From Spirochaetia bacterium (GTDB lineage: Bacteria > Spirochaetota > Spirochaetia > DSM-16054 > Sediminispirochaetaceae), in the NCBI GenBank assembly GCA_034520965.1, contig JAXHMY010000001.1, positions 512,001-576,000 on the forward strand: DNA of 64,000 bases, given 5' to 3'. The notes beneath the pieces are model-generated. The model was not told the origin of the DNA. It saw nothing but the letters and a program-made list of their open reading frames with translations, and did no database searches. Numbering within the stretch: the first letter of the stretch is position 1; the number at the start of each line of letters is the position of its first letter. Positions 14,885 through 59,665 of this stretch are shown piece after piece. The translations under genes and the position numbers were made by a program.

Positions 14885-16039
14885 ATGCGCTTCAAAATTT
14901 TTACCGGTTTGTGTGCTGTGTGCACCTTTCTTCTGCCGCTTTTCACTGTTAAACCGAACCGTATACAAACCGGAAGTGCAGTGTGGGTATTCGAGCTGCC
15001 GCCCGGCTACTGGGCGGCAGCGGTAATACTCATATTCCTAATAGCATTTATTGTTTTCTCCCGCCGCCATACCGACATTTTATTCCTCTTGTTCTCGCTG
15101 GCCTTTATGACCCTGTTGCTGGCTATTCTCCACTATCTGCAGGGACATTTGTATATGTGGGATGCTCAAGAGTATGGCCGCATAAGCTTCTCCGGGGGGT
15201 TTTGGATTGCTCTATTAACGATCTATCTGCTCTTAAGCTGGGCATATCGAAATACTCGGCATAAACAACTGCTGCTTCCTATAGCGATACTCCTTATGAC
15301 GGCAGGCGTGTTTCTGTTTATTCTAGTGGGCAGTTTTGAACACACAGCTATCCTACTGGAATATCAAAACCGCTCACAAAAATTTCTAATGGAATTGCTG
15401 AATCACATAAACCTTAGCCTGGCGGCTGTCGGTACGGCAACTGTTATCGGGGTACCCGCCGGTATATGGGCCGCCCGTTCCCAGAAATACCGCATCCTGG
15501 TATTTAAGACAGTAAATGGTATTCAGACAATTCCCAGTCTGGCTTTATTCGGTTTGATGATTGCTCCACTAGCCCTATTATCACAGCAGTTCCCTGTACT
15601 TCGATCACTGGGAATTGCCGGAATCGGCACTGCCCCGGCCTTAATTGCACTTACCCTGTATTCACTGCTTCCTATCATTCGCAACACCTTTACAGGCATT
15701 TACTACATCGAAACACAAATTATCTCTGCTGCCCACGGAATGGGTATGAACAGAGCCCAGACTTTTCGCTATATCGAACTGCCGCTGTCAACACCCATGA
15801 TTCTCACCGGAATCAGGATGTCCCTTGTGCAATGTATAGGCAACACTGCTGTGGCCGCTTTGATTGGTGCCGGCGGGCTGGGTACGTTTATTTTTCAAGG
15901 TCTGGGCCAGTCGGTACCGGATTTGATCCTTCTGGGAGTAATACCGGTAATCCTTTTATCCATTCTGTTTGACCGTCTTTTTCACTTGGCAGAACACTGG
16001 GCTACCCCAAGGGGAGTGCGTCTTGCATGGGGTAACTAA
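14885..16039 (+). CDS. osmoprotectant ABC transporter permease (YehY-like)
   Basis: KPNRI N-terminal motif, QTIPSLALFG, EAA-like loop SAAHGMGM, IGAGGLG. Confidence 0.9.
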   Translation: MRFKIFTGLCAVCTFLLPLFTVKPNRIQTGSAVWVFELPPGYWAAAVILIFLIAFIVFSRRHTDILFLLFSLAFMTLLLAILHYLQGHLYMWDAQEYGRISFSGGFWIALLTIYLLLSWAYRNTRHKQLLLPIAILLMTAGVFLFILVGSFEHTAILLEYQNRSQKFLMELLNHINLSLAAVGTATVIGVPAGIWAARSQKYRILVFKTVNGIQTIPSLALFGLMIAPLALLSQQFPVLRSLGIAGIGTAPALIALTLYSLLPIIRNTFTGIYYIETQIISAAHGMGMNRAQTFRYIELPLSTPMILTGIRMSLVQCIGNTAVAALIGAGGLGTFIFQGLGQSVPDLILLGVIPVILLSILFDRLFHLAEHWATPRGVRLAWGN

Positions 16040-16769
16040 AATTCTGAAGCAGCAAAAGTTAGGAGCACTATTTGTACTTGTGTATCTGCTGTATGTAGCT
16101 CTTCCGACACTACAGTACAGCCTTTTATCCCCCCTGTTTCCTCACCTCCAGGAGATTCTGTACCCGCGGGCCAGTCTACTGCGCCTTTTTGGAGAGCACC
16201 TTCTGTTAGTGCTGCTGTCCGGCATAAGCGCTTTTGTCACCGGAATTATTTTGGGCATTGGCGTTACTCGTCCGTGGGGACGTGAATTTCTCCAGTCTGT
16301 ACAAGACTTGACAGCCCTACTACAAACATTTCCGCCGGTTGCAGTATTGACCCTTGCAGTTCCGGCAGTCGGCTTTGGTTTTACGCCGGCCTATTTGGCC
16401 TTGTTCCTCTATAGTATTCTTCCGATTGTACGAAACACAATTACCGGACTCTTATCGGTACCCCAGCCCCTCAAAGAGGCCGCCCGCGGCATGGGAATGA
16501 CCCCCCTGCAAGTTCTTATCAAGGCCGAGTTGCCGCAAGCCTTTCCAGCCATACTGACGGGCACACGTATCTCAATGATTATCAATATCGGTACTGCCAC
16601 TATCGGAGGGGTAATTGGTGCAGGAGGTCTGGGAGTAGCCATTGTGGCCGGACTGGTGCGTGACAACACCGCATTCGTCTTGCAAGGTGCTATAGCTGCC
16701 GCGGGACTGGCCTTTTTAGCCGATTACCTGTTTGAGTTGTGGGAACAGAAAATGAACAGACAGGAATAA
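15969..16769 (+). CDS. osmoprotectant ABC transporter permease (YehW-like); true start probably slightly downstream
   Basis: QTFPPVAVL, EAARGMGMT and IGAGGLG motifs. Confidence 0.85.
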   Translation: MTVFFTWQNTGLPQGECVLHGVTKILKQQKLGALFVLVYLLYVALPTLQYSLLSPLFPHLQEILYPRASLLRLFGEHLLLVLLSGISAFVTGIILGIGVTRPWGREFLQSVQDLTALLQTFPPVAVLTLAVPAVGFGFTPAYLALFLYSILPIVRNTITGLLSVPQPLKEAARGMGMTPLQVLIKAELPQAFPAILTGTRISMIINIGTATIGGVIGAGGLGVAIVAGLVRDNTAFVLQGAIAAAGLAFLADYLFELWEQKMNRQE

Positions 16770-16957: not shown

Positions 16958-17626
16958 TTAGATATCTATTATTCCAAGCCTGGTAGCATAATGAACTAAC
17001 TCTGCAGCGTTTTTCACCTTAAGCTTGCGAAAAATGCTGGTACGGTGATTTTCAACCGTACGGTAACTTATATAAAGGCTTTGAGCAATTTTTTTTACCG
17101 ATAAACCCTCAGCCAAAAGGCGCATAATCTCCTGCTCCCGCGCAGTGAGGGACTCATAGTCGTTGTCCTGTACATCGTAGAATCGCTGGGGATGTTCCAG
17201 GGCCTTTTGAATTATCACCTCTAGGGTAACTTGATCAAAAAAATACTCGCCCCGCAGCACCTGCTTTATGCCGTCAATAAGGCGCACAGGTGAAGTCTCT
17301 TTGGTCATATACCCGCTCACTCCGTTACTGACCGCTTCCAGCACATAATCACTGCGGCTATACATACTAAGTATGATAATTTTGAGCAGCGGATATTGTT
17401 CACGAAGCTGAGAAACAAGCTCAACCCCTGAACCATCGGGCAGCGAAATGTCAAGAACCACCACGTCGATATCGGAATCTCTTAAGATTTCGCGGAGTTC
17501 TTCGACAGTCTCCGCCTCCCCACTAATAACAATGTCCTTATCTCGCTGCAGAGCAACTTTTACACCATCTCTTACAGGGGGGTGATCATCTACCAGTACC
17601 ACACGAATTCCACGTAGAGTAGACAT
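16958..17626 (-). CDS. NarL/FixJ-family response regulator, interrupted by a group II intron (exon 1 = ATGA at 19486-19483; exon 2 = 17613-16958; alternative intron-encoded ATG at 17626)
   Basis: VVLVDDHP, VVLDISLPDGSG receiver motifs; LuxR HTH LTAREQEIMRLLAEG...TVENHR. The spliced junction reads ATG AGT GGA ATT CGT (MSGIRVVLVDD). Confidence 0.92.
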   Translation of the reverse strand: MSTLRGIRVVLVDDHPPVRDGVKVALQRDKDIVISGEAETVEELREILRDSDIDVVVLDISLPDGSGVELVSQLREQYPLLKIIILSMYSRSDYVLEAVSNGVSGYMTKETSPVRLIDGIKQVLRGEYFFDQVTLEVIIQKALEHPQRFYDVQDNDYESLTAREQEIMRLLAEGLSVKKIAQSLYISYRTVENHRTSIFRKLKVKNAAELVHYATRLGIIDI

Positions 17627-19482
17627 ACTATCGCCTTCCTTCATTAAGGGGGTTACGATAGCATGCCCCTCCCAGAACCGTACGTGCGCAACTAACGCAT
17701 ACGGCTCCTAGCACTAAACATTCGACCATTGCCAGATGTCTTTGCAAATTCTCGGTCTTGGTATTAATTTCCATATCTTTTCAAACGTCTCCCAATTTAT
17801 CTTGTGCTTCTGACCTCTCCGCCTTAGAGCCTTATACAGCGTATATCTGATGTATTTATAGAACTTGTACAGCCCTATTAGATTTCCGTTGACCCCATAG
17901 TAATTGTAGTGCCCAACCAGTTTCCGGCTTAGTGCTCTCACAATCTCCATGACAGGTCGATGCATATTCCATCTAATCCACTGTTTTGCGCTCTCGCGTT
18001 TAGCCTTCAGCTTCTTCTTGCTAGTGAGGTGCAGAACTGTGTACTTACCAGTCCTTGTACTGGCATTCACGTGGGTGAATCCAAGAAAATCAAATGTCTC
18101 CTTGGTTCCTTTGTACCTTCCAAATGGAATGATCCTTGTCTTCTCTTCGGCCACCGTTAGCTTGAACTTTGCAAGCCTTTTAAGCATCACCTCGTAGAAT
18201 CTTTTCGCATCATCCTCGTACTGGAACAATACCACATAGTCATCCGCATAACGGTATAAGTATGCCTCACCCCTCAAACACCTTTTCACTACCTTCTCAA
18301 ACCACAAGTCGAGTACGTAATGAAGATAGACGTTAGCCAGCACCGGCGAAATAAGCCCTCCTTGCGGAGTCCCCTTGTCGCTGTCGCTGACGTTCCCATT
18401 CTCCATGATCCCCGCCTTGAGAAATCTTACTACATAACGGATGAAATTCTTGTCCTGTATATCGTTCTCAAGAAACTTCACCAGCCATTCGTGGTCGACA
18501 TTGTCAAAGAACCCTTTGATGTCGGCATCAAGAATATAATTTACCTTCTTAGTCATGATCGTTTGGTTTATCTCCCGTATCACATCATGACAATTCCGAT
18601 TCGGCCTGAACCCGTAGGAACAGTCCAGAAACCTCGGCTCGTATATCTCAGTCAGCACCTTCGCCATTATTCCCTGTACGAGTTTGTCCTCATACGCCGG
18701 GATTCCCAGCGGTCGTACCGTGCCATCCGTCTTGGGTATGTATGTTCTTCTCACCGCCTGCGGTCTGTAGCTGAAGGATTTCATCCGTCCAAGCAATGCA
18801 TCCACATGCTCTTCCAGTCCGGACTCATAGCTCTCCTTCGTCGCTCCGTCTATGCCTGCGGCTTTTCCTCTGACCTGCGCTCGATGCTCCGCCTTCAGGT
18901 TCTCCCTGTTGACGTAGTGCATGAGCGTCTGCATCTTCGCGTGACTCTCCGACAACCTCCTCAATTCCCCATAACTGTTTTCCACTCTTTCAGAACCTCC
19001 AGTGTTCCTGGTGTTGGCCACAAGAAATACGTTTAATGCCCAGACCCCTTCGCTCCACCGACTTTCACCGGTTTCATCGCTACTATGAGTCTGTCCGATT
19101 GCTGATGCCCCATACAGGTTTCTTGACTCCTCGCCTTTACGTCCCCTATTAGTCCAACGGACAGGACATCAGCCCTCCCAGGTACGCTTGATCTACCTTG
19201 TGTGCTCGCCATGCTCTCAGACCCCGTTGGGTTCTCCGCACTCTCGCCTTTTTCCGAGCGCTTCTTGCTGGTTGCTGTCACATGAAAAACATCACCACCC
19301 AATCTTTATACTAACGAGGCTCAATCACGTTCAACCTTTCGGCTTATGGCTCTCACACTCCTTTACCTACGCTTAAACCTCACCTCACGGCTTCGGCTCC
19401 AAGGCTAAGTACCGGCTGTTGGCTAGACTTTACCGGACAGGGTGTCTCACCCTGCTATATATCAAACGCCGAACTGGCGCAC
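17614..19482 (-). mobile_element. complete group II intron (1869 nt, IIB-like)
   Basis: 5' end GTGCG at 19482; domain V GAGCCGTATGCGTTAGTTGCGCACGTACGGTTC at 17707-17675; domain VI with bulged A ending CTACTCTAC at 17614; internal RT ORF; removal restores the host reading frame. Confidence 0.95.
17714..19021 (-). CDS. ltrA: group II intron reverse transcriptase/maturase, no endonuclease domain
   Basis: AAGIDG, RPLGIP, SYGFRP, DADIKGFFD, GTPQGG, RYADD and FDFLGF motifs plus thumb/X domain; ends at 435 aa with no HNH motif. Confidence 0.95.
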   Translation of the reverse strand: MANTRNTGGSERVENSYGELRRLSESHAKMQTLMHYVNRENLKAEHRAQVRGKAAGIDGATKESYESGLEEHVDALLGRMKSFSYRPQAVRRTYIPKTDGTVRPLGIPAYEDKLVQGIMAKVLTEIYEPRFLDCSYGFRPNRNCHDVIREINQTIMTKKVNYILDADIKGFFDNVDHEWLVKFLENDIQDKNFIRYVVRFLKAGIMENGNVSDSDKGTPQGGLISPVLANVYLHYVLDLWFEKVVKRCLRGEAYLYRYADDYVVLFQYEDDAKRFYEVMLKRLAKFKLTVAEEKTRIIPFGRYKGTKETFDFLGFTHVNASTRTGKYTVLHLTSKKKLKAKRESAKQWIRWNMHRPVMEIVRALSRKLVGHYNYYGVNGNLIGLYKFYKYIRYTLYKALRRRGQKHKINWETFEKIWKLIPRPRICKDIWQWSNV

Positions 19483-19531
19483 TCATGCACAAACTATATC
19501 ATATTTTTTTCTTTTATGGTTCACTATTAAT

Positions 19532-20353
19532 ATGAACATCGATAACTTAGACACAGTCCTGCCGTATATTGTACAGTTAGCCCAGTCCGCCGGAAAGCTG
19601 CAGAGGGAATATATAGATTCCTCCGTTACAATGCAGAATAAAAGCAGTCAGGTTGACCTTGTAACCGAGGTAGATCAACGCTGCGAAGAACTGATTTCCT
19701 CGAATTTGCATACTAAGTTTCCCGAGCATCAGATTTTAGGCGAGGAAGGGGGTTCTCAGGCAAGCACAAGTAATTCTCCGTACAAATGGGTTATTGATCC
19801 GCTGGACGGAACCACGAACTACGTGCATCAAGTTCCGGTGTTTGCAACCTCGATTGCGCTGTTAAAAGACACTACACCGATCCTCGGAGTAGTTCATAGC
19901 GAACCCCTTAAGCGAACCTATACAGCTATTGCCGGGCAGGGGGCGTTTCTTAACTCGACTCGGATCCATTGCTCGGAGACCGGGGATATCAATGCTTCTG
20001 TAGTAGCCACGGGCTTTCCCTACGACCGAGCCACCTCAAAGAAAAACAATGTGAACTACGTTGCCCATATGATCCCACGGGTACGCGGAATTCGTCGTTT
20101 AGGTGTGGCAGCTCTAGATGCCTGTTTTGTAGCTGAGGGAGTTTTTGATGCCTACTGGGAACTGAAAGTACGCCTGTGGGATATCGCCGCAGGGGTATTA
20201 ATTGCTCGGGAAGCGGGTGCAGTGGTACACTACCTCGCCGGTAGGCAGCCATACACCTACGATATACTTTGCGCAGCCCCTACTCTCCACGAAGCTCTGC
20301 TCCAGGAACTACTTACAGTGGATACAGATTTTTCCAGTTTAGCGAGCACCTAG
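19532..20353 (+). CDS. inositol monophosphatase family protein (SuhB-like)
   Basis: DLVTEVD, GEEG, WVIDPLDGTTNYVH, ATGFPYD and WDIAAG motifs; start set at ATG 19532, outside the intron. Confidence 0.9.
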   Translation: MNIDNLDTVLPYIVQLAQSAGKLQREYIDSSVTMQNKSSQVDLVTEVDQRCEELISSNLHTKFPEHQILGEEGGSQASTSNSPYKWVIDPLDGTTNYVHQVPVFATSIALLKDTTPILGVVHSEPLKRTYTAIAGQGAFLNSTRIHCSETGDINASVVATGFPYDRATSKKNNVNYVAHMIPRVRGIRRLGVAALDACFVAEGVFDAYWELKVRLWDIAAGVLIAREAGAVVHYLAGRQPYTYDILCAAPTLHEALLQELLTVDTDFSSLAST

Positions 20354-55695: not shown

Positions 55696-56301
55696 TTACA
55701 CTCCCAGCTCGCTGCGGCTTTTTATCGTACGCGATACCAAACCGTATTCCTTGGCTTCCTCGGCATTCATCCAGAAATCACGGTCGGTTTCCTGCTCAAC
55801 CTTTTCTACCGGCTGGCCGGTTTCATCGCTGATAAGTTTATTTAATTTTGCCCGCAACTTTTCCAGCTCTTTTGCATGGATTTCAATTTCTGTAGCAACA
55901 CCACGGATACCGCTGAGAGGCTGGTGGATGAGATAATGAGAGTTCGGCAGGGCGATCCTCCGCTCTTTTGGTGAAGCCAGTAATACAAGTGCCCCTGCAC
56001 TGGCAACTAAACCCATACCGATGTTGTATACCTCCGGCTTGATAAACCTCATCATATCGTAAATTGCAAAGCCCGCATCGGCATCCCCGCCGGGAGAGTC
56101 TATAAACACCTTAATTGGTTCATCGCTCTTTGATTCAAGCAGTATAAGCTGACGGATAACCCTTTCAGCTAATTCCTTATTGATTTCTCCGGAAAGAAGA
56201 ATCGTTCGAGCCTCCATCATCCGCTCAACTAACATCTCCTGACCGGGCTTTTTCTCCTCATTCTTCTCTTCTTCTTCTAATTCATACTCGCTTCGTATCA
56301 T
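55696..56301 (-). CDS. clpP: ATP-dependent Clp protease proteolytic subunit
   Basis: IDSPGG, GLVASAG, IHQP and DRDFWMNAEEAKEYGLV motifs; GAGG before ATG 56301. Confidence 0.93.
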   Translation of the reverse strand: MIRSEYELEEEEKNEEKKPGQEMLVERMMEARTILLSGEINKELAERVIRQLILLESKSDEPIKVFIDSPGGDADAGFAIYDMMRFIKPEVYNIGMGLVASAGALVLLASPKERRIALPNSHYLIHQPLSGIRGVATEIEIHAKELEKLRAKLNKLISDETGQPVEKVEQETDRDFWMNAEEAKEYGLVSRTIKSRSELGV

Positions 56302-56376
56302 GTTTACCTCAAAAGTTATCAATTTGTACGTATGTAAAAGTATACTAACAAACGGAGAATAAGAAAAGTCCTGGTG

Positions 56377-56438
56377 CAGCATTACTACCCTATAGTTTTA
56401 ATCTCTCCGTCGGAAGACTTTCAAAATTAGAATTGCTG
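56377..56438. repeat. truncated remnant of the double-palindrome element
   Basis: Right end GACTTTCAAAATTAGAATTGCTG matches the end of copy 2. Confidence 0.5.
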
Positions 56439-56484
56439 CGCTGCAGGTGCTTGCACTTCATACACATATCGCTACAATGGGGAC

Positions 56485-57360
56485 ATGAAATCAGGACTAA
56501 TTGCCGTCATCGGCCGACCTTCCTCAGGAAAATCGACTTTAATGAATAAAATCTGCGGGCACAAGGTATCTATTACCGCTCCCTCTCCACAAACCACCCG
56601 TAATACAATCCGTGGTATTTTGTCTGAAGACCGCGGGCAGCTGGTATTTCTGGACACCCCCGGATACCATAATTCAGAAAAAAAATTCAATCGCTATCTT
56701 AAACAGATAGCCCACTCGACACTGGAAGAGAGCGACGCGATTCTCTACGTACTCGATCCGCACCGCCTTCCGGGAGCTGAGGAAATCCAGTTGATGCAGG
56801 TACTCGCAGCCGGCGGCAAACCGGTGATTACCGCAGTGAACAAAACCGACCTCAACCCGCCTCAGCTTAAAGGGGTGCAGCAGAAAATAGCCGAGCAGCT
56901 TCCTCATTCACTCATTTACCCAATTTCAGCACTGAACGGTTTCGGTGTTCGCGACCTGGTAGCCGGTCTGTTTTTACAGGCTCCGGAGGGGGAGCTGATG
57001 TACCCCAAGGACTACTACACCGATCAAGATCCGGAGTTCCGCATTACTGAAATAATCCGCGAGCAGGCCGTAAACCGTACGCGGGAAGAACTTCCCCATG
57101 CCGTGTATGTAGAAATTGCTGATATGGAGATGCAGGAGGAACGCCACCTTTTATGGGCCCGTGCAGTCATTTTCGTTGAAAAGGAATCCCAAAAGGGAAT
57201 GATAGTTGGAAAAGAGGGCAGTATGATCAGAAAGATCAGAGTTTCCGCAGAAAAAGAGCTCAGAGAGCTGTTTCCCTATGCGGTAAAACTTGATCTGCGT
57301 GTAAAGGTTGACCCCAAGTGGCGTACTCGAGACCAACTACTCCAACGACTTATACATTAA
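56485..57360 (+). CDS. era: GTPase Era
   Basis: GRPSSGKSTL, PQTTR, DTPG, NKTD, ISAL motifs and KH domain EELPH...SQKGMIVGK. Confidence 0.95.
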   Translation: MKSGLIAVIGRPSSGKSTLMNKICGHKVSITAPSPQTTRNTIRGILSEDRGQLVFLDTPGYHNSEKKFNRYLKQIAHSTLEESDAILYVLDPHRLPGAEEIQLMQVLAAGGKPVITAVNKTDLNPPQLKGVQQKIAEQLPHSLIYPISALNGFGVRDLVAGLFLQAPEGELMYPKDYYTDQDPEFRITEIIREQAVNRTREELPHAVYVEIADMEMQEERHLLWARAVIFVEKESQKGMIVGKEGSMIRKIRVSAEKELRELFPYAVKLDLRVKVDPKWRTRDQLLQRLIH

Positions 57361-57370
57361 GATCCGACCT

Positions 57371-58940
57371 TTACACGTAGCGAGAGAGGATTTCCAGCAC
57401 TTTCTGTTTACCCACCGTCATGATAAAGCCGGCTAAACGCGGCCCCTTCTCTTTTCCGATAAGCACCATGTATACCAAGCTAAATAGATCTTTCGGCTCC
57501 AGTTCCTCACTGCGGGCAACGTCGTAAATGGCGGTCCCTAAACTTTTTTCGTCATGTACATCAAGCTTTTCGACCTCCCCTTTGAGCCCCCGCAGCATAC
57601 ACTTCTGCTGCTCATCGGTCTCCACCAAGGGGTCTGCGGCTGTCTGCAGGCGAAAGCGAAACTCCTCCGGACTAAAGCGGGTAATCCAGTTCCAGGCACA
57701 CTGGGCTCGGACCCTCATGCGTCGCTGCTGCTCTTCATCCAGCTCAAACATAGAGAGTACCGTTTCTATATCCCCGCCGTTGATCTGCAGCAGGTTGCAC
57801 AGGTGTCTAAACGGCAGCTGTACCGGCATGGTTTCCGGAACACCGTGAACCTGGGAAAGCTCGTAAATCCGGCTTTCCTTCTGGCGCTTCTTCTCGCCGA
57901 CTTCCTGTTCACCAAAATAGATTCGCTCGCACTTATCGTAGTCCTCGTAGATTTTGAGCACATCTAAATCAAAGGAAATTGCAAACTCGCTGTTTGGCCG
58001 GGTACCGGCAAACAGGTAACGGACAATTTCCGGTTGATAAATCTCTAGTACTTCGGACAGGCCAACTACTTCTCCGGAGGAGGATGAGATTTTTCCACCA
58101 CGCCCCTTGATACGGATAAAGTCATATTGGAAGGAAACCGGTTCCTCCGCCGTACACCTCTTTGACGATCTTACGGCCGGTATCGAAGGATCCGCCCTCG
58201 GAGTGGTGGTCCTTGCCGGCCGGTTCAAAGTCGACTCCTTCTTGACGCCAGCGCATCGGCCAGTCTACCCGCCACGGCAGTTTTACCGCGCTTGTTTCAC
58301 GCAGATCAAGGGTTTCCTCATTACCGGTATCTTCACAACGGTAGCGCAGCCCCCACTCTCCGTCCCATCCCAGTACCGTCGTAGTGTCACGGTCGGTAAA
58401 GGTGCTGAATACCGATACGGGCCACCAACCTTCGGGAAGGGGCTCGGTACGGTGTTCGTTTAAGATACTGCGGATGGTGTCCCGCTGTTCCAGAGCAGTC
58501 CGAATCCCTTCGGCATAATAAGAGCTGCGGTAGCGTTGGGCCTGGTAAATATACTCCGGCTCAACCCCCACCTTCGGCAGCAGCTGTTCCAGTGCTTTCT
58601 CGTTCGCCTCTGCATAACTGGAATACCCTGAACTGGTATCCGGTACCAGTGTAATGGGCTTGCGAAGATAACTCTCCAGTAGCTCCGGGTTCGGCATATT
58701 CTTGGGTACTTTGCGAAACACATCATAATCATCCCAAGAGTATATAAAACGAACCTGCTTTCCCTGATCCCGCAGGGCCCTCACGATTAGTTCGACCGAA
58801 ATAATCTCGCGAAAGTTACCAATATGCACAGTGCCTGAGGGAGTGATACCCGATGCACACACATAGGTATCTTTTTCGCCCTTTTGACGTACTATTTTTT
58901 CGGCAGTACTGTCTGCCCAATGAAATGTATTTCCCTTCAT
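57371..58940 (-). CDS. lysS: lysine--tRNA ligase, class I (frameshift near 58140)
   Basis: [43 protein letters not shown] and GPRLAGF motifs. Confidence 0.93.
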
Positions 58941-59064
58941 AGCCGTGCATTATAGAGGTAAATTTAGTATTGTTCAATGGAACCAAAAACTCTCATGTGT
59001 TAAGGTTACAGTTAGGATACAAATGCGCCGAGATAAGAGACATAAAGATGACTATGGGGGAAGA

Positions 59065-59665
59065 GTGAACAAGCTGGTATTAGTTCTGTTAAGTATATTA
59101 CTGCTGCCTACACTCCCGGCATGGGGAGAAACCGGTTATGCATCGTGGTACGGGGGAAAGTTTCAAGGCAGACAAACGGCGAGCGGCGAAGTATTCGATA
59201 CCAACAAATTGACGGCCGCCCACAAAACCCTCCCCTTCGGTACAGTGGTGGAAGTTACCAATTTAGACAATGGAAAGAGCATAGAAGTTCGCATTAACGA
59301 CCGAGGCCCCTTCGTGGAAGGCCGCATCATTGACCTCTCTGAGCCGCCGCCGCGAAGATCGGAATGATGAGCACGGGCATAGCACCGGTAAAAGTAGAAA
59401 TAATCCACAGTGCATCCTCTTCGACCGGAGCTCTCACACTATTCCATTCAAATTGCTTCATTTTCAGCGCGTAAAAACGCTCAACTCCTGCACAGCCGGC
59501 TTTACGACCGTGGTTTGCCGGCGGAGCTTGAAAAGTCGGACAGCGGTCACACTCGAGTGGTGCTTCCGGAAGGTGCAAGAAGCTGAGCTGGATACATTAC
59601 TGACAAAACTGGCGACCATGGGCTTTAATTCGGTGTTGGTCCGACGCCATTTCCCGGCCAATTGA
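59065..59665 (+). CDS. rlpA: RlpA-family lytic transglycosylase with C-terminal SPOR-like domain (frameshifted)
   Basis: GYASWYG...TASGE...[11 protein letters not shown]...VRINDRGPF...IIDLS. Confidence 0.85.

Follow-up and report, generated by a model that had tools for sequence, protein, structure and literature searches.

A spirochaetal response-regulator gene interrupted at its start codon by a mobile group II intron with a candidate replacement translation start in domain VI

The window analysed here is a stretch of 64,000 nucleotides (nt) from a Spirochaetia bacterium of the Sediminispirochaetaceae (GCA_034520965.1, contig JAXHMY010000001.1, positions 512,001 to 576,000). It contains a group II intron of 1,869 nt on the minus strand (19482-17614, GUGCG...CUAC), which interrupts the gene of a NarL/LuxR-type response regulator (RR) directly after ATGA. 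With a slash marking the splice junction, the 5' junction on the minus strand reads ...tatagtttgtgcATGA/GTGCGCC... (between 19483 and 19482), or in longer context ...aTGaTATAGTttgtgcATGA/GTGCGCCAG... (19501-19483/19482). The 3' junction reads ...GAAGGAAGGCGATAGTATGTCTACTCTAC/GTGGAATTCGTGTGGTACTGGTAGATGAT... and lies between 17614 and 17613. The 5' exon ATGA (19486-19483) consists of the start codon plus one nucleotide. It is at the same time the intron-binding site IBS1 and pairs with the UCAU core (19282-19285) of the exon-binding site EBS1 in the terminal loop UUUUCAUGUG of domain I, as deduced from the Rfam alignment and from covariation across 23 aligned introns. Six nucleotides before the A of the ATG stands an extended -10-like box, TGaTATAGT (19493-19501), the presumed promoter of a leaderless transcript. 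Exon 2 (16958-17613) comprises the RR gene minus its first 4 nt and encodes a Response_reg domain (85.9 bits) and a GerE domain (75.9 bits).

The conserved ribozyme domains are present, namely the 5' GUGCG, domains I to IV, domain V, and domain VI (DVI) with a bulged A at position -7. The Rfam model group-II-D1D4-6 (RF02005) matches 19447-19212 with 116.9 bits (gathering threshold 49), and Intron_gpII (RF00029), which covers domains V and VI, matches 17709-17614 with 48 bits (gathering threshold 40). Domain V was located at 17675-17707 by the RF00029 alignment and by folding. An internal loop, UUAGUAUAAAGAU (19302-19314), occupies the position of EBS2 in relatives, where the loop pairs with the 5' flank. 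The intron-encoded protein (IEP) is a reverse transcriptase (RT)/maturase of 435 residues (17714-19021). The Pfam scan yielded only RVT_1 (134 bits) and no endonuclease domain, and the match to NCBIfam TIGR04416 (370.5 bits, cut-off 300) identifies the protein as a group II RT/maturase. In a sequence search of the PDB, the IEP obtained near-equal scores to the LtrA, E.r. IIC, R.i., GsI-IIC, and TeI4h RTs. The element is a mobile group II intron whose protein lacks an endonuclease domain.

The 3' end of the intron is unusual in that the linker and an enlarged DVI together comprise 61 nt (17614-17674, bulged branch-point A at 17620); in distant relatives DVI has a length of 38-41 nt. The sequence leading into exon 2 is GAAGGAAGG (17642-17634) CGATAGT ATG (17626-17624) TCT ACT CTA C (17614) / GT GGA ATT CGT GTG GTA CTG GTA GAT GAT. 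A Shine-Dalgarno (SD)-like run is followed after 7 nt, a spacing that is in use for SD sequences in this genome, by an AUG 13 nt from the 3' splice site. This AUG is in phase 1, which matches an insertion after ATG plus one nucleotide, and opens a frame of 218 codons into the RR gene. The list of open reading frames (ORFs) contains the unspliced frame as MKEGDSMSTLRGIRVVLVDD... (16958-17644, 228 residues, Response_reg and GerE). The original prediction, which had been made from the sequence alone and proposed that the intron supplies a replacement ribosome-binding site and an in-frame start codon, was right about the positions, about the spacing (7 nt) and the distance (13 nt), and about the phase. 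Its deduced N-terminus of the spliced product, MSGIRVVLVDD, is identical in an intron-less allele of a sister genome (L178).

DVI folds into one helix of 18 base pairs (bp), GGAG GGGCAUGCUAUCGU / GCGAUAGUAUGUCU [A] CUCU, in which the bulged A is separated by 7 nt from the 3' end. The fold has a free energy of -27.3 kcal/mol and a z-score of -4.15, and none of 200 shuffled sequences was as good. As had been proposed, the AUG lies within this stem. The accompanying claim that the SD-like run is situated in the loop holds only in part, since according to the predicted fold the first AAGG of the run (17641-17638) forms a small distal hairpin together with CCUU (17649-17646). At the other end of the intron, the retained 5'-terminal AUG of an unspliced RNA would open a frame of 18 codons into domain I (19430-19486, MSAPVRRLIYSRVRHPVR followed by a stop). 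This ORF has a length of 18 codons at all three sites that the intron occupies in the genome.

The genome (3.35 Mb, 9 contigs) contains three copies of the intron, which are 97-100% identical. The copy on contig 2 is 99% identical to that in the window and interrupts lepA; its 3' junction yields ATGA/ATACACCTAAAGAATTTATCCGCAACTTCTGC... and the protein MNTPKEFIRNFCIIAHIDHGKST. The copy on contig 3 is 97-98% identical and is split by an insertion of about 3.6 kb encoding IS66-family TnpA, TnpB, and TnpC. The 5' flanks of the three copies are gaTATAGTttgtgcATGA/, gcTATAGTaaacccaATGA/, and agTATAGTagatcatATGA/, each with ATGA at the insertion point and each behind TATAGT-N6-7-ATGA. Of 18 such TATAGT-N6-7-ATGA sites in the genome, 3 are occupied. 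Empty sites could be found for both identified host genes. The empty lepA site, ATGA joined to ATACACC (...gcTATAGTaaatccaATGAATACACC...), occurs in six genomes of the same genus (L166-L171), and the empty RR site, ATGA joined to GTGGAATTCG (...aTGaTATAGTttgcacATGAGTGGAATTCG...), occurs in one sister genome (L178, 91% identity). The L178 allele, ...atgaTATAGTttgcacATGA GTGGAATTCGTGTGG..., fixes the intron boundaries independently. Among 17 genomes of the order that were searched, the 3' 187 nt of the intron were present only in the genome studied here. Loose ends from the DNA run X5 correspond to one more independent site, ...GAGTATAATtattatt(c)ATGA/intron/AATTTTTT.... The intron has thus been mobile recently, and its boundaries are exact.

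Two further observations concern individual copies. The insertion in the contig 3 copy lies near intron nt 392-402 (L003:2980-4479, L004:1-1500; contig 3 ~55877-59458), and its TnpB corresponds to IS66 Orf2; exon 2 of this copy has a frame of only 30 codons, so that the host gene may be decayed there. In a relative (L086:1427-1616), two intron copies stand in tandem with only ATAATGA between them, the second following an ATGA that is located 7 nt into exon 2 of the first.

No SD sequence was found upstream of the ATG of the RR gene or of lepA. SD-led starts are the norm in this genome: among 2,121 crude gene starts, GGAG or GAGG peaks 9-14 nt before the ATG, with up to 224 occurrences per position versus a background of about 16. 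What precedes the two host genes is a -10-like promoter box. In all 11 intron-less relatives shown for lepA, which extend across the family, TATAGT stands 7-8 nt before the ATG, and relatives of the same genus additionally contain TTGATG 17 nt upstream of TATAGT. For the RR gene, TGnTATAGT-N6-7-ATG was found in four of the five relatives shown; L178 has the box and the spacing of the window, and L179, L180, and L183 have TGgTATAGT-N7-ATG. A simple scan for -35/-10 pairs did not call the RR promoter, as there is no good -35 element. Because these starts are adjacent to a conserved promoter and lack an SD sequence, both genes are probably leaderless. Promoter geometry, absence of the SD sequence, and conservation would place the start of transcription on the A of the ATG.

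The genome seems to contain a minority of leaderless genes in which TATA[AG]T is separated from the ATG by 6-7 nt. When the whole genome was scanned for TATA[AG]T-N6-7-ATG, this ATG was the first in an ORF of at least 100 codons in 23 of 123 cases. Most other spacings gave 4-8 of 80-124; the values were 9 of 83 for 0-1 nt and 16 of 129 for 8-9 nt. The lepA gene (contig 2, 355468; relatives L166-L176) keeps the arrangement of box and ATG across the family.

These features suggest the following course of events. The intron would belong to a lineage specialised on translation-initiation regions directly behind promoters. Its ribonucleoprotein would find ATGA behind a TATAGT box and reverse-splice into the sense strand by means of the UCAU of EBS1. 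Transcription from the host promoter would then yield pppAUGA-intron-exon 2, with a 5' exon of only four bases. A leaderless start is functional only if it is 5'-terminal on the RNA; the insertion would therefore cut the ORF off from its sole initiation signal, and the retained 5' AUG would now open the 18-codon frame into domain I. From here two routes are conceivable. If DVI folds and the intron is excised, the ligated RNA would be leaderless again and give MSGIRVV.... If a ribosome binds to GAAGGAAGG-N7-AUG, the product would be MSTLRGIRVV..., which is three residues longer upstream of the receiver domain. The enlarged DVI would in this way compensate for the insertion and provide the full regulator from unspliced RNA, on which translation of the RR gene is predicted to start at 17626. 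Because SD sequence and AUG are paired within the branch-point helix, ribosome loading and a splicing-competent DVI should exclude each other, and a competition between the two, as originally envisaged, is plausible from the predicted structure. We consider an intron that lands close to a promoter and rebuilds the start signal to be the probable explanation of the locus as a whole. The suggestion that the arrangement is a dedicated switch on an orphan regulator found no support: the same element with the same tail also resides in lepA and at the third site, and its relatives are found in many unrelated genes. The property therefore belongs to the mobile element and not to the RR gene.

In order to compare related introns, 80 of the 146 loci found in species genomes and 80 of the 554 found in metagenomes were sampled; their IEPs are 46-94% identical to the query. 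A tree of the IEPs served only for a rough grouping into sublineages and not for deducing an order of events; note that about seven of its rows hold a host ORF in place of the IEP (L002, L013, L018, L029, L095, L021, L024). The pairing of the AUG and of part of the SD sequence recurs in 18 folded relatives, and the combination of SD sequence and ATG in DVI also recurs, as had been expected for homologous introns. The comparison lends strong support to the reading that the intron supplies a substitute ribosome-binding site and an in-phase start. At 91% IEP identity, L005 contains the SD-like sequence AAAGGAGGAAGG with an ATG at -13, and L086 contains AAAGGAAGG followed by an ATG. In L088 (88%), AUGGAGGA precedes the ATG, and the AUG is retained unpaired, the partner strand having changed from CAUGC to CUUGC. 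The more distant L139 (54%) has GAAGGAG...ATG at -13 and is inserted behind a canonical start, GGAGGTGaggccATGG/. In L007, which is the same as L094 (81%), position -13 is occupied by ACA, and ACAGGAG with an ATG is found at -37 in the same phase. At all sites of close relatives with a readable flank, the insertion follows ATGA. One sublineage uses a different solution. The introns L012, L109, L115, L119, and L129 end in ...ACTTATG/ or ...ACTCATG/ and contain GAAAGGAG inside DVI; the four with a known 5' flank (all except L115) are located directly behind an SD-led host ATG. Group II introns normally end in AY, and a 3'-terminal ATG is unusual. With an SD sequence in DVI and a terminal ATG, the unspliced RNA therefore encodes an unchanged host protein.

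The frame relationship was assessed at unique sites with an exon 2 of at least 90 nt (rows L001-L035 and L085-L164), a DVI of 50 nt or longer, and a single phase that is clearly open in the host. Our reading of the table of sites by these criteria gave 21 sites and leaves out seven rows with an unclear host frame (L003, L009, L017, L040, L086, L108, L131). At 15 of the 21 sites, the start codon in DVI is in frame and open into the host ORF (L001, L002, L008, L012, L013, L018, L022, L029, L088, L109, L111, L117, L119, L129, L138; L018 and L117 without an SD sequence), where about 7 would be expected by chance. At three more sites (L023, L099, L128), an SD-led start opens a mini-ORF whose TGA stop codon is created at the junction, 4-8 nt before the host ATG. 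The hosts of the in-frame introns are unrelated and include Fe-ADH-like, 5'-nucleotidase, BNR, alpha/beta hydrolase, and U32 peptidase genes as well as two RelB antitoxins. The dnaQ-like host of L007 starts 21 nt downstream with an SD sequence of its own.

A looser pattern for domain V, which takes in the variant of a clade targeting GAGGUG, gave 128 loci with 115 unique 3' ends, of which 69 have an extended DVI (at least 50 nt) and 46 a short one. GUCGAG occurs 6-10 nt before a terminal CUCGAC in 32 of the 69 extended DVIs and in none of the short ones. The two motifs can form a hairpin from the branch-site region and the 3' splice site (for example in L008, L009, L013, L015, L016, L019, L021, L023, L025, L028, L030, L099, L111, L113, L116, L117, L120-L122, L127, L128, L132, L135, and L156), and this hairpin competes with the basal helix of DVI. 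The introns in question separate the SD sequence of the host from its start codon (GAGGTG/, GGAGG/TGA and the like). For 29 hairpin introns, the sequence includes at least 60 nt of exon 2. In 26 of these, an SD sequence lies 1-4 nt before the hairpin, and a start located 2-11 nt behind the junction opens an ORF. If the hairpin is excluded, the distance between the SD sequence and the host start is 7-12 nt in 24 of these 26, with a mode of 9-10.

A separate observation concerns the DVI of L007 (1825-1947, identical in L094). It contains an insert of about 60 nt, ...TTTCAGAGGAAACGGAAAGTAACAGGAGAAAACAAAC..., that recurs nearly unchanged in the DVI of L044 and L055, two distant relatives with 47% IEP identity to the query, and which may be a small module moving between introns.

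An alignment of domain I from 23 introns, calculated with MAFFT, revealed covariation between the EBS1 loop and the 4-8 nt at the end of the 5' exon. A 5' exon ending in AUGA is matched by UCAU, UAUG by CAUA, GAGGUG by CACCUC, AGAGG by CCUCU, AAGG by CCUU, and AGGA by UCCU. The same holds for UCAUAG with CUAUGA, CACAGA with UCUGUG, CGCUUA with UAAGCG, and AAAAGGA with UCCUUUU. Many members of the lineage therefore pair with a start codon or with the core of an SD sequence; CACCUC is itself the anti-SD sequence. The upstream flanks contain a second signal. In 63 unique 5' flanks, we searched for hexamers with at most one mismatch to TATAAT in which A2 and T6 were kept. Such a hexamer ends 10 nt (14 flanks) or 11 nt (11 flanks) before the insertion in 25 of the 63, and at 9-13 nt in 29; all other distances from 0 to 39 together gave 20 hits. 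The extended -10 motif TGn accompanies 15 of the 29 boxes at 9-13 nt. We conclude that the clade inserts at a fixed short distance behind real promoters.

The loop at the EBS2 position pairs with the flank in several relatives (L035, 9 bp adjoining IBS1; L037 and L006, 6 bp each) and with the box itself in others (L015, 7 bp; L016, 6; L008, 7; L019, 6, with a G/U change; L099, 11; L142, 10; L122, 7; L156, 9). In part of the clade, EBS2 thus probably helps to read the box. For the intron in the window, no consistent pairing of at least 5 bp with its three flanks was detected; only UAUA/UAUA (4 bp) fits TATAGT. A 7-bp pairing, GUAUAAA/UUUGUGC, was dismissed as it is peculiar to the RR site. What looked like IIC-like terminator hairpins in front of distant relatives (at most 50% identity) proved to be the 5' ends of the introns themselves, which start with GAGCG.... 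A group of relatives with 61-62% IEP identity (L010, L095-L098, L101-L104, L106) is found 10 nt behind textbook TGnTATAAT boxes. The insertion sites of this group are ATGG/, ATGA/, AAGG/, GAGG/, or GGAC/, and DVI has a length of 41 nt and contains no start in frame with the host. The host ORF of L010 begins with a stretch that we take to be IS200-like.

Taken across the clade, the data allow a broader but tentative reading, which we regard as possible and somewhat doubtful. According to it, EBS2 would recognise the -10 box and EBS1 either an AUG or the core of an SD sequence, the introns would land about 4 nt into transcripts and leave a 5' exon of 3-6 nt, and the branch-point domain would act as a portable initiation cassette whose conformers are mutually exclusive. 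This cassette would take the form of an SD sequence plus AUG in phase, of a terminal AUG, or of an SD sequence bridged by a hairpin. If this were true, every invaded gene would acquire a switch between ribosome and splicing.

An indication of excision comes from RNA libraries. Contigs from metatranscriptomes of two studies, one each (runs X16 and X18), join the last base of the intron to its first: 17611-17812 is followed by 19358-19479, with the full tail included. The joint leads from 19479 to 17611, that is, back by 1,869 nt, and is ambiguous by 3 nt because exon 2 also begins with GTG. It was absent from two DNA runs. A full-length junction fits an intron circle rather than read-through of a lariat, because the 6-nt tail would be absent in the latter case; direct tandem DNA copies are an alternative source. 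Excision probably occurs in nature, at least in relatives.

Several points weigh against an intron that rebuilds the start signal of its host. An AUG within an 18-bp helix and a partly paired SD sequence (-27.3 kcal/mol) should inhibit initiation, and the SD sequence in the window, AAGGA at best, is weaker than those of the relatives. Pairing also constrains the second and third bases at -13, and an ATG or TTG there is by itself weak evidence. At three of the 21 sites (L007, L114, L130), neither an in-frame start nor a mini-ORF was found, and the 21 sites are not independent events, several being due to one intron type. Relatives with a short DVI at start codons (L010, L096, L101, L103, L143) have no in-frame start; the L010, L096, L101, and L103 types combine a 41-nt DVI with ATGA/ or ATGG/. 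Only some members of the clade thus have the cassette, which is not obligatory. The contigs with the head-to-tail joint are 90-95% alike to the window and hence stem from related copies, and RNA libraries can also hold DNA. In the two RNA runs, neither ligated exons nor coverage of 17462-17611 or 19487-19567 were seen, which is uninformative on absence because the records are contigs.

Alternatively, the SD-like run and the AUG could be by-products of the structure of DVI, with nothing translated from them and the host wholly dependent on splicing. The helix would then simply combine a purine-rich with a pyrimidine-rich strand, and UG with CA, and in nearly all folded relatives the SD-like strand indeed pairs with an anti-SD sequence (CCUU, CCUUUC, CUUCUC), with the AUG in the stem. 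Relatives with a short DVI at ATGA and ATGG do without a cassette, and the head-to-tail RNA junctions suggest that relatives are excised. However, a plain helix need keep neither a GGAG-type sequence 7-10 nt before a start nor the phase. In L007 the start was shifted to -37 in the same phase, in L088 the AUG was kept despite the mutation of its partner, and the ATG-ending sublineage places its ATG exactly at the junction. Moreover, 15 plus 3 of the 21 sites are in frame or coupled, as opposed to about 7 expected for in-frame starts alone, and the spacing between SD sequence, hairpin, and start is as tight as 7-12 nt in 24 of 26 cases. A purely structural origin is accordingly quite improbable. 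Ribosomes might also be recruited for the benefit of the intron itself, that is, for protection from RNase E or against Rho-dependent termination and polarity downstream of the IEP stop codon, in which case the match with the host frame would merely avoid harmful out-of-frame products. The cassette lies 70-90 nt behind the stop codon of the IEP, and mini-ORFs that stop at the junction (L023, L099, L128) fit pure ribosome loading. For the Ll.LtrB group II intron, ribosome association is described as protecting the RNA (PMC3851717; also discussed in PMC12584367). This proposal leaves the phase of the host ORF, the exact rebuilding of starts, and the canonical effective SD distance unexplained, so that we judge it improbable as the sole cause; a benefit to the intron and a role in host translation can coexist.

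A different objection concerns the promoters. The association with -10 boxes could be due to base-pairing specificity alone, if EBS2 reads TATAAT-like DNA and the 5' exon is long in the RNA. In L015, L016, L008, L019, L099, L142, L122, and L156, the loop is complementary to the box. Pairing does not require the TG of an extended -10 element, though, which is present in 15 of 29 boxes with a variable third base, and the boxes vary like promoters do (TATAGT, TATAAT, TAGACT, TATACT, TAAAAT, TACAAT). Relatives without an intron conserve the box, its distance from the ATG, and the absence of an SD sequence at both lepA and the RR gene, and for the intron in the window only 4 bp fit. It is therefore unlikely that pairing alone explains the boxes. 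Pairing and promoter recognition are compatible, as reading promoters may be the function for which EBS2 evolved.

Group II introns are commonly assumed to persist either by clean splicing or by hiding outside genes. Landing on a start signal and bringing along a replacement would be a third strategy, by which the host gene is freed from its dependence on splicing. That lineages specialised on start and stop codons are in print, as the original prediction had stated, can be confirmed: the relevant passages of PMC12584367 describe a IIB1 lineage from proteobacteria with a CL1-lineage RT at initiation and termination codons (Michel et al. 2007). According to the same passages, this lineage always carries a subdomain Ia of 300-700 nt near the 5' end, its groEL introns turn UAA into UAG so that the ORF is still closed on unspliced RNA, and ribosomes and intron folding are considered to influence each other possibly. 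Common to both is that the homing site is a translation signal and that a working signal is left behind; the insertion follows ATGA at all three copies studied here, of which the RR and lepA sites are verified gene starts. In contrast to the IIB1 lineage, the intron in the window has no large subdomain Ia (only 461 nt precede the ORF, and the Rfam D1 match starts at intron nt 36), its IEP lacks an endonuclease domain, and Spirochaetes and Firmicutes serve as hosts. A further difference from the groEL introns is that the signal rebuilt here is an SD sequence plus AUG inside DVI. The intron is not a member of the IIB1 start/stop-codon lineage and follows the same principle.

Group IIC introns read terminator or attC stem-loops and do so without EBS2 (compare PMC7306698). 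The intron resembles them in its IEP without an endonuclease domain, in its short IBS1 (4 nt here), and in targeting a generic signal of gene expression, as a result of which copies occur in many unrelated loci. Unlike in group IIC, a -10 box together with a start codon or SD sequence serves as the signal, no hairpin abuts the three sites, the EBS2 pairing of relatives comprises 6-11 bp, and the IEP is about as distant from IIC RTs as from LtrA. The intron is not a group IIC intron. By analogy, the DVI helix can further be compared to RNA thermometers and the expression platforms of riboswitches, in which one conformer keeps SD sequence and start base-paired and another makes them available; here, however, the helix is the branch-point domain of a ribozyme, and the alternative state is splicing. 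In gene 38 of phage T4, a hairpin bridges the spacing between SD sequence and start, and the hairpin of the relatives between SD sequence and start analogously gives a canonical effective spacing. A full-text literature search, outside the scope of which lay Michel et al. 2007 and Simon et al. 2008, retrieved no report of an SD sequence or AUG in a group II DVI, nor of leaderless or promoter-proximal homing or of a hairpin-bridged SD sequence in group II introns. The terms start codon, ATG, initiation codon, and Shine are absent from the review by Zimmerly and Semper 2015 (PMC4424553), Toro and Martinez-Abarca 2013 (PMC3552965) gave no match, and the one mention of a promoter in Waldern et al. 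2020 (PMC7306698) is irrelevant.

The introns provide natural cases for how retroelements pick promoters, ribosome-binding sites, and start codons, for the competition of translation and ribozyme folding on one RNA, and for group II splicing with a 5' exon of about four nucleotides. They also matter for annotation, as invaded genes look intact with an altered N-terminus (here MKEGDSMSTLRGIR...) and the introns are easily missed. With regard to the surroundings of the RR gene, no adjoining histidine kinase gene was found within 15.5-21.5 kb of the window. The RR gene is flanked by two ABC-type permease-like ORFs and a gene of the inositol-monophosphatase family (14885-16769 and 19532-20353), the latter gene being divergent from the RR gene at a distance of 45 nt.

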